Shown piece after piece: positions 7,588 to 39,486 of a stretch of 39,486 nt of DNA. The DNA lies in IMG/VR virus record IMGVR_UViG_3300036717_000038, positions 1-39,486 of that record; one strand, given 5' to 3'. The number at the start of each line of letters is the position of its first letter. Within the stretch, counting starts at the first letter, position 1. A program made the translations under genes and the position numbers. The notes beneath the pieces were generated by a model. The model was not told the origin of the DNA and did no database searches. It saw only the letters and a program-made list of their open reading frames with translations. The DNA is from a virus.

Positions 7588-7955
7588 ACGACGAAGCGCC
7601 AGAGCAACTCGAACTCCCGGAGAAATGGAAGATACCTTCCGCTTGGGCATCGTGGGCGATGGAGGAACGCAAAGGATGGACGCTCGCGCACGTCAAGAAG
7701 TCGGCCAAACGCTTCCACGAATACCACCGGCTCAAGCACAGCACGCGCTCTAACGTGGACGAATGGGAACTCGCCTTCAGGAGTTGGATTCGGAAGGAGC
7801 GGGATATAGGACCGCAGCAGGAAGACGGTAAGCAGCACCAGGGTGCGTTGTGCGCCGCGCCGAACTGTACGGCGTTAGGATCAATGGCACATCAGGGCGC
7901 CGGGCCTTGGTATTGCAGCGAGCATTTTTCTTTTTCTCACACCGAAAGGGCTTAA
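7584..7955 (+). CDS. Hypothetical protein with Cys/His-rich C-terminus (123 aa)
   Basis: ORF in the early operon. CAAPNC...WYCSEH suggests metal binding. Confidence 0.6.
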   Translation: MNDEAPEQLELPEKWKIPSAWASWAMEERKGWTLAHVKKSAKRFHEYHRLKHSTRSNVDEWELAFRSWIRKERDIGPQQEDGKQHQGALCAAPNCTALGSMAHQGAGPWYCSEHFSFSHTERA

Positions 7956-34157: not shown

Positions 34158-34405
34158 GACATCAACCTTTCCTCGATCCACTTCCCGGCCAGCGTCTTGA
34201 AGCACTCGCTCGCGTGCTTGTCGTCGAACTGATCCCGGCGCGTCTTGAGCATGACGAGAAAGTTGACCTTCGCCTCTTCGCTTCCGAGCTTTGGCCAATG
34301 CTGCATCCACGCCTTGATCTGCGTGAAATCGCGCTCGTGCTGAAGGTCGCCCAGGTCCGGGGCGAGCGGGATGTTGTTCAAGATCATGCTCTTAGGTTGC
34401 ATCAT
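34154..34405 (-). CDS. Hypothetical protein (83 aa)
   Basis: ORF in the track, located between the HTH protein and the large terminase. Confidence 0.55.
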   Translation of the reverse strand: MMQPKSMILNNIPLAPDLGDLQHERDFTQIKAWMQHWPKLGSEEAKVNFLVMLKTRRDQFDDKHASECFKTLAGKWIEERLMS

Positions 34406-34691
34406 CGCTCTCCACCTTCTTCATTCTGACAAAATCCTCTGGAAGCGTCGAGGCGAAGCCGTCGAGGTTGATTTCGATGTTGCCCCCGCACGGCTTCTTG
34501 AGCAAGCCCTTTTCGATCAACTTGTTGGCGTTGCGAAATACCGTTGACCGATGCAAGCCCAACTGCTCCGCGCACTTGTTGACCCAACCTCGACCCGCAA
34601 CATGCCCCATGCAACCGACATCGACGAGGAACCAAATCAGCCGGTGCTCCGTCGCGCTGATGTCGGCGCGCTTCCAGATTGGATCGGACAT
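34392..34691 (-). CDS. Winged-helix/HTH DNA-binding protein (99 aa), candidate small terminase or regulator
   Basis: I chose the ATG at 34691 (MSDPIWKRADISATEHRLIWFLV...). NKCAEQLGLHRSTVFRNANKLIEKGLL looks like an HTH. Confidence 0.55.
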   Translation of the reverse strand: MSDPIWKRADISATEHRLIWFLVDVGCMGHVAGRGWVNKCAEQLGLHRSTVFRNANKLIEKGLLKKPCGGNIEINLDGFASTLPEDFVRMKKVESDDAT

Positions 34692-34693
34692 TT

Positions 34694-35044
34694 TTACCCG
34701 TTCAACACCGTGCGCACGGCGCCGGCCTGCTCCTGCTGCGCAACCTTCTGTTGGTACAACTGCGCCTTGACATGGCGCTCCAGATGCCGCTTCGTGTCGC
34801 TGTTCAACTCGCTGCTGGCCGGCAGGCCGGCAATCCAGCCGAGCGTTTTGCCCTGGTCGAACAGGTTGTCCACCACGTCCAGGGCATGCGATGCAATCGA
34901 TCCGGGTGTCGCTTCCAATGCCCGACCGCTCGACAGCATAGAATTGACGAACTGCAGCGCCGTTCTGAAACGCAAGTCCATGACGCAGCCGTCGGCGTAG
35001 GCCGCGAGCGGATCGGGGTAATACTCGATGTTGGAGTCGGTCAT
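34694..35044 (-). CDS. Hypothetical protein (116 aa)
   Basis: ORF in the track with an ATGA overlap with the upstream gene. Confidence 0.55.
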   Translation of the reverse strand: MTDSNIEYYPDPLAAYADGCVMDLRFRTALQFVNSMLSSGRALEATPGSIASHALDVVDNLFDQGKTLGWIAGLPASSELNSDTKRHLERHVKAQLYQQKVAQQEQAGAVRTVLNG

Positions 35045-35436
35045 GATGATTTCCCTTCATGCAGTTTTTGTTTCAAGAGATAGCCTTCGATCGGCCAAAT
35101 CTTGTCAAGTGCATTCTCCATTGCAATTTTTTGGCCGAGGCTTGCGTCGAAATTTTCCGGGCTGACGCATGCCGACTCGCCAGTGACAGTAAAGCCATTT
35201 TCCAGTACCAGCACACAGAAAGTCAGAAGCCCCAAAGTAGGATCAATGGAATAGGTTGGATGTGAATTGGTTGGATGTGTAGAAGCATTTGCTAGAACGC
35301 CTTCTGCGGCTGTGAAATAGTAGGCGTCTTTGACGAGAGCATGAATTCGGATAGGCGTGACGCGCGCTGCCGTCTTCCATTTATCTTTAATTTCCTGCTT
35401 GATTTGTTGGTCAGTGCTCATGTCGTTGCTCCCCAC
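35041..35436 (-). CDS. N4 Gp49 / Sf6 gp66-like protein
   Basis: LTFCVLVLENGFTVTGESACVSPENFDASLGQKIAMENALDKIWPIEGYLLKQKL matches my memory of that family's conserved core. An alternative start is at 35421. Confidence 0.7.
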   Translation of the reverse strand: MGSNDMSTDQQIKQEIKDKWKTAARVTPIRIHALVKDAYYFTAAEGVLANASTHPTNSHPTYSIDPTLGLLTFCVLVLENGFTVTGESACVSPENFDASLGQKIAMENALDKIWPIEGYLLKQKLHEGKSS

Positions 35437-35846
35437 ACGCCCTTGATCGTGTCGGCCAGCATGTTTCGCGTTGACGTCGACATCCCGGCGGTGAACTGCT
35501 GCAGCTCGCGCAGCGACGACACCTTGTCCGCGTGCTCCGGGTAGCCGTCGTATTGCGTGATGCCGGCGGCTATGACATCCGTCAATCGGTCAAACTGCTC
35601 GACAGTTGCGTCAAGGCCGGAGCCAGGAGAAGCGGACGCCGCCTCCGCTGCGCTCGCAATGGTCTCCAACTCCGTAACGGCCACAGCAACCGCATTTTGG
35701 TCAGGCGCAATATTCGCCGCGTCTTCTTCAATTTTCGCCTCCGCTGCAGCGACTGCCGCCTGGTCCTGCGCTCTCTCGACGGATGCCGCATAGGCAGCGT
35801 CGTTCTCCTGCGTCTGTGCGTCGGTCAGTTGGTTTTCGTCGGTCAT
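35418..35846 (-). CDS. Hypothetical acidic Ala-rich protein (142 aa)
   Basis: ORF in the track. It is the first sizeable gene of the late arm. Confidence 0.6.
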   Translation of the reverse strand: MTDENQLTDAQTQENDAAYAASVERAQDQAAVAAAEAKIEEDAANIAPDQNAVAVAVTELETIASAAEAASASPGSGLDATVEQFDRLTDVIAAGITQYDGYPEHADKVSSLRELQQFTAGMSTSTRNMLADTIKGVWGATT

Positions 35847-35882
35847 GATAAAGCCCTCTTTTTCGGTTGAATTTCAGGAAGT

Positions 35883-35956
35883 GGGGGCCGGGCTGAATCG
35901 AACATGCCGGCCTCCGACCTTAATGGTCGGTGCTCTTCCACTGAGCTACGGTCCCC
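35883..35956 (-). tRNA. tRNA-like element, non-canonical. It has UUA at the anticodon position and could be a suppressor-like tRNA or a pseudo-tRNA.
   Basis: The minus strand reads G-GGGACCG-TA-GCTC-AGTGGAA-GAGC-A-CCGAC-CATTAAG-GTCGG-AGGCC-GGC(A)TG-TTCGATT-CAGCC-CGGCCCC-C. The D arm and anticodon stem are perfect. There are three defects: A instead of U at position 33, a bulged A in the T stem and an A-C mismatch in the acceptor stem. Confidence 0.5.
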
Positions 35957-35963
35957 GTCGTCG

Positions 35964-36101
35964 TTACCCGCGTATCCCAATCGTGACGCTCGGACGTGGT
36001 TTCTTTCCGCTTCCGCCCGTGGGTTTCGGCGCCGGTGCTGGTGTTGCCTTTTGCTGCGGCTGCGGAACCGGCTTCGCAGTCGGGGGTTTCGGTATCGCCA
36101 T
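35964..36101 (-). CDS. Possible 45-aa Pro/Lys-rich leader ORF (MAIPKPPTAKPVPQPQQKATPAPAPKPTGGSGKKPRPSVTIGIRG)
   Basis: Read manually. AAGGAGAG lies 6 nt upstream of the ATG at 36101, and the TAA at 35964-35966 is just upstream of the tRNA-like element. Confidence 0.35.
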   Translation of the reverse strand: MAIPKPPTAKPVPQPQQKATPAPAPKPTGGSGKKPRPSVTIGIRG

Positions 36102-36139
36102 GCTGCTCTCCTTCGAAGGTTGAATGGAACTGCATGGAA

Positions 36140-36168
36140 AGCATATACCACCTTCCGCTATGTTGCAA
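36140..36168 (-). promoter_or_regulatory. Candidate leftward (late-arm) sigma70-type promoter
   Basis: On the minus strand, TTGCAA (36168-36163) is followed by a 17-nt spacer and TATGCT (36145-36140). An alternative reading is a TGgTATATG extended -10. It lies about 40 nt upstream of the leader ORF RBS. Confidence 0.4.
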
Positions 36169-36303
36169 GCATGTAGCTACACTATTTCTCTATGCATCCC
36201 CCTCGACGCCTGCTCGCCATACACCGTCGCAATTCAGCAACAATTCTGTCTTCAATAATCCCCCTCAACCTCTGTTGCCTTGGCGTACTTCGTGATTTTT
36301 TTT

Positions 36304-37337
36304 GGTGGGGGAAACGGTGGTGGCACCCAACAAACTCAGTCTCAAGTCCAACCTATTGTCCATTGGGCAACGGCAGAACGATGAAGCGCGGCCTCAGCAC
36401 CGGGAGACCGGCCGACCCGCTCGCGAGCAAGCCAGGGGTGAGAGGTATCACATTCCGATACTCGACCGCAGAAGGTAGCACTCGAAGGTATCAGTTTTCA
36501 ATACTTGCCTTGGGGAATGTGACGGCCACCACAAGTTTTCACGCCTCATTAAGCATGCTGAATCAACAAAGTGAAGCACCGAGGGTAATAGAAGGTCGGG
36601 ATACGATGGAGAGCCGCTACGCTCTAACCGTCACGGAAAGAGTCAAGAACAACGGCGTCTACAGGGATGGCAGGAGAAGACCGACGATAACCAGTCTTGA
36701 CGATTTCAGAATCCTTGGGTTTTAAATGTCCAAAAGCCACGGTTTGGTTTCGCTCAGGTCCAAACCTCACCCGAGGAAAAAAGGGAGAAAAGTCCTACCG
36801 ATGGCGGTTTATCTATGCCTCGGAGTGCGCGGCCTATGGTCTCAAGGCGCTATCGCGGTCTCCGCACGGGTTCGAGTCCCCTGTGTCGGCAACGTTTATC
36901 GAGGTCGGATCGGCTCCGAGTGCATGCCCGCCTGGACTGCGGCGGCTTCCTCTAGGGCTGGGTTATGGCCCCCGCTGAAGGGGCGCCGCGAAGTGAATCA
37001 AGCCCTTGCACACGGCGCCGCTTCAGAGGGCGCGCGTCACCAGTAAAGACAAAAAGCTACGGCATCCTCAGCAGACCCACTATACGGCCGAGCCGGATGA
37101 AGGAATCGAAGATCCAGAAGAGAAAAATCGGAAACGGGCCGGCGTCGGTGGAATCGAAAACGACAGGGATACGCCTGGTGCACGGCTTTGAGGATCGGAT
37201 TTAGCGGTGGAAGCTTTACGCGTGATGAGCTAGGCATGGGCGAAAAAAACTCAATAGATGAGGCCGGTCGGCGGCCTGGCGGGCGAAAAAGCATGTGGTA
37301 ACGGCACGATGCAAATCACCAGCCTCATCTATTGAGT
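36304..37337 (+). ncRNA. Candidate large structured non-coding RNA (family unassigned; boundaries approximate)
   Basis: No credible ORF is present. Helices seen: 36317-36324 GTGGTGGC with 36525-36532 GCCACCAC. Twin hairpins at 36444-36462 and 36486-36506, each with one G-U pair that works only on the + strand. 36741-36747 GGTTTGG with 36760-36766 CCAAACC. 36819-36825 CTCGGAG with 36914-36920 CTCCGAG. A 14/16-bp stem at 36973-36988 / 37013-37028. A T-arm-like GGGTTCGAGTCCCC at 36868-36881. A terminal 16-bp stem at 37249-37264 / 37322-37337. Confidence 0.3.
36866..36890 (+). other. tRNA 3'-half-like element (T arm plus 3' acceptor strand) without a matching 5' half
   Basis: ACGGG-TTCGAGT-CCCCT-GTGTCGG-C has 4 of 5 T-stem pairs. 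I found no convincing D or anticodon arm upstream. Confidence 0.4.
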
Positions 37338-37345
37338 CTGTTGTT
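37243..37345. terminator. Long hairpin with A7 and T-rich flanks, a candidate bidirectional factor-independent terminator
   Basis: Perfect 16-bp arms ACTCAATAGATGAGGC (37249-37264) and GCCTCATCTATTGAGT (37322-37337) flank a 57-nt loop. The hairpin is preceded by A7 (37243-37249) and followed by CTGTTGTT. Confidence 0.45.
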
Positions 37346-37494
37346 CCGTTACAACTTTATCGGTAGCCAGCCGATGACCGAATATTGCGCCTGAACGATT
37401 TGCCCTGTCAAGCGCTTTATGCGAAAAATCTGCATTTTGTTGAATCGATATAGCCACACGATCTAGAATATTGACTAAAAACGTGAATAAATGT

Positions 37495-37522
37495 TTGAAT
37501 ATCTTCGAATATAGTCTATAAT
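37495..37522 (+). promoter_or_regulatory. Rightward early sigma70-type promoter
   Basis: TTGAAT (37495-37500), a 16-nt spacer and consensus TATAAT (37517-37522) lie in an AT-rich tract. GGGAGA and the first early ATG (37566) follow. Confidence 0.55.
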
Positions 37523-37565
37523 TTAGTCATCGAATCACAAACAGCCAGCAAACGGGAGAATAAAA

Positions 37566-37784
37566 ATGATTGAACTGACCTACACCGGAATTTCCGCAGA
37601 ACAGGCAACTGGTTACATGACCTATGCCACGATGGACACGGTTTTTTCGGTTGAGGAATACGCTGAAAAATACAATCTTAACCATCACGACATTGACGCC
37701 GCATCGGTTCATGCCGTGCAAGACGCGATAGCACAGTTGAATCAAGGTCAATTTTTGCATATTGATCACGAAAACATCAACTGA
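37566..37784 (+). CDS. First early gene: small strongly acidic protein (72 aa)
   Basis: GGGAGA lies 7 nt upstream of the ATG. By my count there are 11 Asp/Glu against 1 Lys and 0 Arg. Confidence 0.65.
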   Translation: MIELTYTGISAEQATGYMTYATMDTVFSVEEYAEKYNLNHHDIDAASVHAVQDAIAQLNQGQFLHIDHENIN

Positions 37785-39139: not shown

Positions 39140-39469
39140 ATGTCAAAACAAGAAACAATACGAATCGATGAAGTCGAGTACGTCCGCGCGGACAAGGTGA
39201 GGACGTTCGAAGGCGACATCAAAATAATCGTCGCTGATCGCGGCTTCGTGTACATCGGCGTGATGTCGCCAGTTACCGCAGAGTCGACCTTCGTCGAACT
39301 CAACAAGGCGCACAATATCCGCGTGTGGGGAACGACAAAAGGTCTTGGCGAACTGGTCAACGGGCCAACAACGTCAACAAAGCTCGATTTGGTCGGCACG
39401 CTCAAAATCCCAATGCGCGCTGTCATCTCCATCATTACAGTGGATTCCACAAAATGGAAATCACTGTAA
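39140..39469 (+). CDS. Conserved-looking hypothetical phage protein (109 aa). Its 3' end lies in the terminal repeat.
   Basis: CAGGAG lies upstream of the ATG. The segment IRVWGTTKGLGELVNGPT resembles an uncharacterised phage family I recall. The stop at 39467-39469 corresponds to 72-74. Confidence 0.65.
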   Translation: MSKQETIRIDEVEYVRADKVRTFEGDIKIIVADRGFVYIGVMSPVTAESTFVELNKAHNIRVWGTTKGLGELVNGPTTSTKLDLVGTLKIPMRAVISIITVDSTKWKSL

Positions 39470-39486
39470 CGCTGGACGGCTACGGC
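39396..39486. repeat. Terminal direct repeat, copy 2 (identical to 1..91)
   Basis: Same alignment as copy 1, with a constant offset of 39,395. Confidence 0.95.

Follow-up and report, generated by a model that had tools for sequence, protein, structure and literature searches.

What occupies the roughly 1.2 kb between the divergent operons of the phage genome in IMG/VR virus record IMGVR_UViG_3300036717_000038 (39,486 nt, analysed in full and referred to below as the window)? The block in question, positions 36169–37345, lies in the gap that separates a leftward operon from a rightward operon whose first gene starts at 37566. A preliminary description, made from the sequence alone, took the block to be gene-free and rich in helices and proposed that it is one large structured RNA, of the general class of GOLLD and ROOL or of a new one, with an origin or regulatory region as the main alternative. 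The block is non-coding and contains no credible gene. On balance, we read it as a composite non-coding control region between the two operons, at the heart of which a ~220-nt element (36759–36976, + strand) is a member of a structured phage family. That the element belongs to a real structured RNA family is a conclusion that we hold with considerable confidence.

The family can be recognized from a short invariant core. The exact 17-mer AGGGCTGGGTTATGGCC was found in at least 119 contigs in a scan for this universal sequence that covered IMG/VR, and about 113 of the 126 occurrences examined are preceded by an upstream CGTTTATC and have covarying flanks. In these flanks, the four bases that follow CGTTTATC covary with the four just before AGGGC, the combinations being TGAG/CTCA, TTGG/CCAA, GCGG/CCGC, CGCA/TGCG and, in the window, GAGG/CCTC. 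The exact 22-mer TCTAGGGCTGGGTTATGGCCCC is also found in an unrelated contig of 66% G+C (L101), flanked there by a gp49/66-family gene and a portal gene; L101 and the window have just 25 nt in common.

A covariance model (R1) was constructed from 32 copies, including the window copy and three close relatives, with 15 hand-set pairs (long-range closure P1, helices Px and Py, and hairpin C) over 204 positions. RNAalifold recovered only hairpin C from the family MAFFT alignment, and the remaining helices were therefore set by hand. R1 matches the window once, at 36759–36976 on the + strand, and aligns over all of its positions (1–204 of 204). Over 80 sources it gave 78 full-length matches, 73 of them distinct, with scores of 19–159 bits. 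Among the matches are six loci that had been picked by terminase homology alone (L065, L071, L083, L085, L089 and L082); in these the element lies 2.4–4 kb upstream of the terminase gene and on the opposite strand, as it does in the window. The element is laid out in the window as follows.

36759–36976, + strand: the whole element, an unnamed, widespread, RNA-like structured element (model R1, 112.3 bits, E ~2e-40)
36763–36773, + strand: 5′ block AACCUCACCCG, a landmark of the element
36770–36785, + strand: hairpin H1, a landmark of the element
36806–36807 with 36972–36973, + strand: closing pairs P1, long-range
36807–36813 and 36894–36900, + strand: copies 1 and 2 of GUUUAUC, conserved single-stranded blocks
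36814–36890, + strand: variable centre, containing a hairpin (36832–36848) and a T-arm-like motif (36868–36881)
36901–36904 with 36949–36952, + strand: helix Px (GAGG/CCUC), enclosing two lineage-specific hairpins
36905–36919, and CCGCC 36928–36932 with GGCGG 36941–36945, + strand: the lineage-specific hairpins inside Px
36955–36960 with 36966–36971, + strand: hairpin C, loop GGUUA, near-invariant

The nested helices Px and Py, hairpin C and the long-range P1 covary. In the R1 alignment, 93.2% of cells are paired, compared with 74.1% in shuffled alignments, and none of 500 shuffles reached the observed value. Cells with double changes number 199 versus 69 in shuffles (again reached by 0 of 500), and fall to 10–58 when the 3′ partners are slid. 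Double changes occur at 10 of the 15 modelled pairs, including all seven pairs of Px and Py. The P1 pair is CG in 37 sequences, GC in 21, UG in 8 and UA in 4, with one non-pair; on a MAFFT alignment that had not been fitted to the model it is paired in 31 of 31 sequences (GC 15, CG 14, UG 2). Hairpin C is nearly invariant and includes U·G and G·U pairs; in diverged members a U·G is changed to U-A (two cases) and a C-G to G-C (one case). From the wobble pairs of hairpin C and the U·G at P1, the fold belongs to the strand that carries the motif, which is the + strand of the window; such strand-specific wobble pairs are indirect evidence that the element would be transcribed as RNA from that strand.

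Outside the modelled pairs, family members run for ~190–230 nt, from AACCUCACCCG to GGCCCC, and share as single-stranded blocks AACCUCACCCG, the two copies of GUUUAUC and AGGGCUGGGUUAUGGCCCC. The stems of the 5′ hairpins vary in sequence with pairing kept, as judged by eye, and the centre is variable. The central hairpin at 36832–36848 is compensated at two different pairs, by UA to GC in the related lineages L008 and L017 and by CG to AU in the more distant L022 (the latter by eye). The T-arm-like GGGTTCGAGTCCCC to which the preliminary description had drawn attention is present at 36868–36881, but ARAGORN and Rfam find nothing there and L008 and L017 have unrelated sequence in its place. In one locus (L214, ~7770–7810, + strand) the 3′ core is tandemly duplicated, as GGGCTGGGTTATGGCCCCCGGGCTGGGTTATGGCCCCC.

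Comparison with relatives indicates how sharply conservation is focused. Close lineages (L008, the L011–L016 group and L017) were recovered through look-ups of exact proteins and a single protein search. Their homology with the window sets in exactly at 36139, the end of the −10 hexamer of a putative leftward promoter (PL, see below), and reaches ~37540 in the lineages that extend that far; in the L011 group the genes differ on both flanks and homology again starts exactly at this promoter. Between these limits the block is a mosaic, in which stretches of 95–100% identity alternate with insertions and with patches that have been replaced outright. The 86-nt core at 36892–36977 has no substitutions in four close lineages, its only change being a 1-nt indel in a loop. 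The flanking genes of the four lineages differ by 8–30%; for L017 versus the window the divergence is 8–9% in the adjacent structural genes and ~30% over a 45-amino-acid (aa) open reading frame (ORF) next to the block. A scan of JGI metagenomes with the terminase-like protein of the window yielded 80 loci, including L022. This distant relative, whose terminase is 75% identical, has a gene-free gap of ~1.7 kb flanked by the same two operons. In this gap, parts of the window block are matched at 62% nucleotide similarity (including a weak homologue, also at 62%, of 36140–36376), and L022 retains the 22-mer TCTAGGGCTGGGTTATGGCCCC exactly. Around the element, the mosaic comprises the following stretches.

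36169–36758, no strand: lineage-specific non-coding spacer of near-identical blocks, indels and replaced patches, with no coding or folding signal
36641–36647 with 36695–36701, no strand: GUCAAGA/UCUUGAC stem within that spacer
37034–37242, no strand: variable spacer; 37034–37128 differs in each lineage, and 37129–37236 is conserved only between the window and L008

In the first of these spacers, L008 has a 59-nt insertion at 36275/6 and the patch 36661–36731 is replaced. At 36444/5 the window lacks a segment of ~78 nt that is present in L008 (~993–1067), L011 and L017. This segment is bounded by (A/G)GTATC direct repeats, and its loss drops a third GTATC copy upstream of a pair of twin hairpins, which suggests a slippage deletion in the window. 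Positions 1 to ~75 of L017 (contig k141_295236) are an inverted duplicate of its positions 215–280, the terminator hairpin region; this is probably a MEGAHIT artefact at the contig end and was ignored in comparisons.

Immediately around the element and on both sides of the block lie features that resemble control sites.

36140–36168, − strand: putative leftward sigma-70-type promoter PL, read from the sequence (−35 TTGCAA 36163–36168, 17-nt spacer, −10 TATGCT 36140–36145)
36968–37033, + strand: long helix with arms 36968–36988 and 37013–37033 and a 24-nt apical part, starting in the 3′ strand of hairpin C/P1
37243–37342, − strand: intrinsic-terminator-like hairpin with a 16-bp perfect stem, a branched apex and U7 (+ strand A-run 37243–37249); inverted repeat I1, z −3.8
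37343–37565, + strand: control region of the rightward (early) operon, ~97% identical in all close lineages
37440–37469 and 37495–37522, + strand: promoter-like sites TTGAAT-18-TAGAAT and TTGAAT-16-TATAAT, from a consensus scan
within 37343–37565, + strand: ribosome-binding site before the 72-aa gene at 37566
37474–37481 with 37522–37529: inverted repeats TGACTAAA / TTTAGTCA, read from the sequence
37372–37383 with 37521–37532: inverted repeats CGATGACCGAAT / ATTTAGTCATCG

The long helix at 36968–37033 is mutually exclusive with the closing pairs of the element. Its 18 pairs are kept without exception in four sequences. In L017, three pairs have compensatory double changes and two have become G·U, which pairs on the + strand only, and L022 has a helix of unrelated sequence that starts at the same nucleotide (CCCCGAcUAAUCUUU / AAAGAUUAaUCGGGG) and contains one C/A mismatch. 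This helix may act as a switch partner for the element or as a double-strand processing site.

The hairpin at 37243–37342 is best read as a predicted intrinsic terminator for a leftward transcript. The preliminary description had seen here a terminal 16-bp stem with a T-rich tail on the + strand. The stem is present (37249–37264 with 37322–37337), but the tail is not conserved: at this site L017 and L022 carry a hairpin that differs in sequence, keeps the A7/U7 run and lacks the + strand T-rich tail, and at least four positions are compensated in L017. Relatives thus retain a stable stem followed directly by a U-run on the transcribed strand. With the A-run conserved but not the T-rich tail, the structure points to a leftward terminator and not to a + strand RNA that ends here. 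Its apical part, ~57 nt long and branched, is atypical, which is why the consensus scan did not list it. PL reads toward the 45-aa ORF, a transfer RNA (tRNA) gene and the late operon. It scores 8 of 12, with the threshold of the consensus scan set at 9 of 12; its hexamers are invariant in four close lineages whereas its spacer is variable, and a TTGCAT-17-TATGCT at the same place in L022 supports the assignment. On the right side, the inverted repeats and repeated GAATAT motifs bracket the early-promoter-like sites and are conserved in all close lineages, and they look like operator sites.

The gap lies between two divergent units of the wider genome. The window represents a phage genome of ~39.4 kb that was assembled as a circle. 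Its ends carry a 91-nt exact direct repeat (1–91 and 39396–39486), the simplest reading of which is that the two ends of a circular or terminally redundant genome overlap in the assembly; given this overlap, the + strand genes at the right end run on into those at the left end. Structural and packaging genes occupy the − strand from 35846 down to ~8259 and encode a major head protein, a portal protein (weak SU10-type match), a terminase-like 593-aa protein, tail proteins and an endolysin. Early and recombination genes fill the + strand from 37566 through the window ends to ~7955; among their products are a RecE-like exonuclease, a Holliday-junction resolvase and a primosomal protein. No integrase was found among the window genes. 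Between the late operon and PL are two small features.

35881–35956, − strand: tRNA with anticodon UUA (ochre suppressor), found by ARAGORN and Rfam
35964–36101, − strand: 45-aa ORF, Pro/Lys/Ala-rich (MAIPKPPTAKPVPQPQQKATPAPAPKPTGGSGKKPRPSVTIGIRG), with a strong AAGGAGAG ribosome-binding site, between putative PL and the tRNA

Public gene calls place in the region of the 45-aa ORF, which is ~30% diverged in L017, a 74-aa ORF that overlaps the tRNA. The tRNA itself differs among close relatives in its anticodon loop, the remainder being nearly identical. The anticodon is UUA in the window, CUA (amber) in L008 (~365–440), CGC (‘Ala’) in L017 (1768–1842) and a four-base CCUU in the more distant L018 (23–101). 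The L008 anticodon was read by eye, as ARAGORN fails on this tRNA, which has a 1-nt insertion. Position 33 is A, not U, in the window and L008, and the L011 lineage is without this tRNA. A winged-helix-like segment (...GWVNK.AEQLGLHRSTVFRNANKLIEKGLL...) occurs in proteins encoded two genes upstream of the terminase gene in the clade of the window (window 34392–35060, − strand; L022 3503–3787), and a similar protein directly adjoins the element in a subgroup of 44–49% G+C (L115, 244-aa ORF). These proteins could be small terminase subunits or replication initiators.

We next consider other accounts of the block. On the + strand, ORFs 36192–36725 and 36726–37046 share one frame and are split by a TAA. 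The only stops in frame 0 from 36192 to 37097 are the TAA codons at 36723 and 37044, the tRNA with a UUA anticodon lies beside the block, and gene callers predict a 177-aa ORF in public assemblies; on these grounds the block might hide a protein gene whose in-frame TAA is read through by the adjacent ochre-suppressor tRNA. Neither of the long ORFs, nor any of eight other stop-free segments of the block, gave a Pfam or PHROG match, and the 177-aa ORF, when searched against 5.8 billion proteins, matched only three products, from the same locus in three lineages. One of these (P0003), identical in six independent assemblies, changes frame at an indel, the L011 lineage being frameshifted. Substitutions between the window and L008 fall 10/13/9 at codon positions 1/2/3, with no third-position excess, and a 1-nt indel lies inside the most conserved stretch of the block. 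The L008 tRNA has the anticodon CUA, yet the aligned stop in L008 is TGA, and the ordinary genes of the window stop at TAA, TAG and TGA with no evident recoding. The restriction of homologues to three lineages, the frame switch, the substitution pattern and the core indel leave suppressor read-through not viable, and we regard a hidden gene as extremely improbable. The gene-free character assigned to the block in the preliminary description is borne out, and the public gene calls across it (177-aa, 254-aa and 143-aa ‘proteins’) are spurious. At the opposite extreme, the block without its promoters and terminator might be a neutral, recombination-scarred spacer in which the shared core is a hitch-hiker without present function, for instance the remnant end of a mobile element. 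The mosaic patches and varying flanking genes, the sharp stop of conservation just after GGCCCC and the one deletion flanked by GTATC direct repeats would suit such a history. The 86-nt core, however, has no substitutions while neighbouring L017 genes have diverged by ~9%, and 17–25 nt are invariant, with compensated helices, across phages of 41–66% G+C and unrelated gene content; since these observations require purifying selection, the spacer account is very unlikely.

It is also very unlikely that the whole block forms one large ornate RNA, whether of the GOLLD/ROOL class or of a giant class of a new kind. The length of the gene-free block, the nearby tRNA, several conserved hairpins along the block and the ~1.7-kb gap of L022 with its partial homology speak for such an RNA, and the landmarks on which the proposal was built are all present, among them the twin hairpins at 36443–36462 and 36486–36505 and the A-rich tract at 36773–36795. 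The block is not, however, helix-rich beyond chance. Minimum free energy z-scores over 36001–37300 (300-nt windows, dinucleotide shuffles) range from −0.05 to +1.7 on the + strand and are clearly negative at the terminal hairpin only (−2.7 on the + strand, −3.8 on the − strand), so that the block as a whole folds no better than shuffled sequence, an outcome that the preliminary description had itself named as speaking against its proposal, where the lack of an Rfam match was likewise listed. RNAalifold energies of a five-sequence alignment, compared with column shuffles, give z-scores of −1.8 to +1.3 on both strands, and the global fold of this alignment has 13 ‘compensated’ pairs on the + strand and 10 on the − strand; as these numbers are similar, the long-range pairs were discarded. 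Most of the helices that had been named do not covary among relatives, and the pairing of 36208–36217 with 36423–36432, said to close ~200 nt, is present but uncompensated. A search for iterons or tandem repeats in the block yielded only short two-copy families. At gathering thresholds, cmscan with Rfam 15 gave no matches in the whole window, and at E ≤ 10 over 35500–37700 it gave only the tRNA and chance-level sX9, MIR946 and Methylosinus-1; thus GOLLD (RF01998), ROOL (RF03087), tmRNA, RNase P RNA, group I and II introns, known ribozymes and riboswitches were all without a match among the 4227 models. Close relatives delete, insert or replace large parts of the block, the distant L065, L071 and L083, of the same terminase clade, retain only the ~200-nt element in a short intergenic gap, and the terminal hairpin is oriented as a terminator of the opposite strand. 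The tRNA, which had been linked to the proposed RNA, lies ~800 nt from the element on the opposite strand and is not part of it. Conservation beyond the immediate lineage is limited to ~220 nt, far from the >500 nt of the large RNAs. What survives of the original proposal is a structured phage RNA that fits no known family, conserved and covarying over 36759–36976 and not over the block as a whole, nor at the 1.2-kb scale or in the GOLLD/ROOL class; its alternative of a regulatory region suits the remainder of the block, with two promoters, a terminator and fast-evolving spacers.

The genomic surroundings of the element across the family bear on its possible function. Its 5′ end usually adjoins a divergently oriented gene. 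What lies downstream varies: TerS–TerL follows on the same strand in L165, L103, L163 and others, early or recombination genes follow in the clade of the window and in L060-type loci, and a large subgroup of 44–49% G+C, as well as MW202825.1, has convergent genes there. Given this mixed context, no single cis-regulatory target fits all members. No protein was found that always accompanies the element; a RecE-like exonuclease is nearby in 11 of 72 loci. The orientation of the window copy is away from the terminase genes, and its next downstream gene is 590 nt off, with a separate promoter between.

A role of the element as DNA or transient single-stranded DNA, whether as a replication origin, a single-strand initiation site or a pac/cos packaging signal, with the GTTTATC repeats and the 19-bp core as protein-binding sites, would explain part of this pattern. 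The element always lies at module junctions and in either orientation to its neighbours, as an origin might. It is often near replication or recombination genes, with the RecE-like exonuclease close by in the 11 loci, a 492-aa ORF judged helicase-like from its sequence alone 66 nt upstream in L171, and a winged-helix protein adjoining it in one subgroup. In other phages it stands directly upstream of TerS–TerL, its core GGGC...GCCC is partly symmetric, and a search for a promoter of its own found none. Nested helices that change sequence freely with pairing kept would nevertheless be unexpected of double-stranded protein-binding sites, and the invariant G·U pairs speak for the folding of one particular single strand. 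The four bases after TTATC covary with a distant partner and hence are not a fixed box such as a DnaA box. Furthermore, contig ends do not fall at the motif, and the core is shared by phages with terminases of unrelated size classes (419, 517 and 593 aa). We therefore consider a DNA-level role improbable, while giving it more weight than the accounts of the block weighed above.

We return to a structured RNA within a control region. Our best guess from the sequence comparisons is a promoter-proximal regulatory RNA or a stand-alone non-coding RNA (ncRNA) at module junctions; a trans-acting ncRNA is a tentative assignment, and a regulatory leader or switch is slightly more doubtful still. In the mechanism that we propose, transcription of the element would begin in the divergent promoter zone and proceed rightward, yielding either a stand-alone ncRNA or the 5′ leader of the early/recombination unit. 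The P1-closed, multi-helix body would present the invariant loop of hairpin C and the GUUUAUC strands to a conserved partner, which would probably be host machinery, as the core is invariant across phages of 41–66% G+C with unrelated terminases. In the lineage of the window, the 3′ strand of hairpin C and P1 could pair instead into the helix at 36968–37033, which might constitute a two-state switch, or a double-stranded processing site that sets the 3′ end where conservation stops sharply. The hairpin at 37243–37342 would halt leftward (antisense) transcripts from the early-promoter zone short of the element.

Several observations weigh against this reading. The established pairs number only 15, those of the 3′ domain and closure; RNAalifold on the MAFFT alignment finds nothing in the 5′ and central domains, and folding energies, for single sequences and alignments alike, are unremarkable. 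If read on the opposite strand, some C/A mismatches of Px and Py, as well as the one of the L022 helix, would form wobble pairs. Neither the consensus scan nor reading of the sequence yields a convincing + strand promoter upstream of the element. The competing helix is seen in the window, L017 and L022; in a family-wide test of downstream competition, hairpin C persisted in 11 of 51 native contexts and in ~29% with shuffled downstream sequence, figures that speak neither for nor against a general competing helix. The family context is mixed, and one large subgroup has the element between opposite-strand genes.

The element family appears undescribed and widespread. Rfam gave no match on L022 and L101, apart from the tRNA in L022, and none on 14 other element-bearing loci; for one compact copy (L107) a search at E ≤ 10 returned chance-level matches only. 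BLASTN of the region, and of two compact family copies, against 50,697 GenBank phage genomes found nothing, and the single record among these that carries the element is MW202825.1, through a 28-nt core match, with the element left unannotated. This is an uncultivated 34-kb genome from Manatee Spring, flagged UNVERIFIED_CONTAM, in which the element (L221, 34–221, − strand) is antisense between + strand genes. Exact-pattern scans of IMG/VR, JGI metagenomes and GTDB genomes for lineage-specific parts of the core returned nothing. Literature searches retrieved, in the collection of papers covered, no paper with the core sequence in a phage context and no description under terminase-associated phage RNAs. 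A published set of the same kind is that of Fremin and Bhatt (2023), who reported 8,495 short candidate RNAs from IMG/VR, 14 of them upstream of a putative large terminase (PMC10690425). Like the element, these are covarying intergenic motifs of uncultivated phages; as the set is described, its members are 29–151 nt long, compared with ~190–230 nt here, and some of them may overlap the element or part of it (PMC10690425).

Among better-known RNAs, GOLLD and ROOL resemble the element as phage- or prophage-borne orphan ncRNAs of unknown function that came from comparative genomics and often lie near tRNA genes. They are roughly 580–800 nt long, in contrast to a conserved unit of ~200 nt here, neither model matches the window at E ≤ 10, and the tRNA of the window, which the L011 lineage lacks, is ~800 nt off and encoded on the opposite strand. 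The putL and putR RNAs of HK022, and EAR, are processive-antitermination leaders, structured RNAs located just past the promoter of long phage or operon transcripts that act on RNA polymerase. The element likewise heads TerS–TerL or an early unit in many family members, but the put RNAs are two-hairpin structures of ~70 nt with no sequence resemblance to it, no promoter has been identified for it, and in one subgroup convergent genes follow it. Conserved junction nucleotides among variable helices, and the alternative pairing of the 3′ closing strand, recall riboswitches and other leaders; the differences are that no Rfam riboswitch matches, no U-tract follows the alternative helix, the competing helix is supported for the window, L017 and L022 rather than family-wide, and the next gene is 590 nt away behind a separate promoter. 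The pRNA of phi29-type phages is a phage-encoded structured RNA of ~120–170 nt, linked to packaging, in which structure is conserved and sequence varies. To our knowledge, it occurs only in phi29-like phages, which replicate by protein priming; there is no sequence or model match to it, and the element of the window points away from the terminase genes.

Time and again, strictly conserved nucleotides in an orphan structured RNA have been the mark of a riboswitch, a ribozyme or a component of a new molecular machine. It is a tentative possibility that the element represents a widespread ncRNA class with a defined tertiary fold, in which the invariant 19-nt 3′ hairpin and GUUUAUC dock on a universal cellular machine or form a catalytic core. 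If so, the docking target would be RNA polymerase, the ribosome or an RNA-processing enzyme, many uncultivated phages of ~33–39 kb would use the element to take over or time gene expression, and the class would rank with earlier orphan RNAs since identified as riboswitches, ribozymes or RNA-only assemblies. The covariance model and landmarks can in the meantime be used to label the element in annotation, and the analysis exposes the public gene calls across the block as spurious. The element is carried by well over 100 uncultivated phage contigs of 41–66% G+C, with several unrelated terminase types and an invariant core of 17–25 nt; matching neither an Rfam 15 family nor a cultured phage, it has escaped experiment. 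It marks the junction between early/replication and late/packaging modules, and may bear on how these phages start or switch their expression programme.

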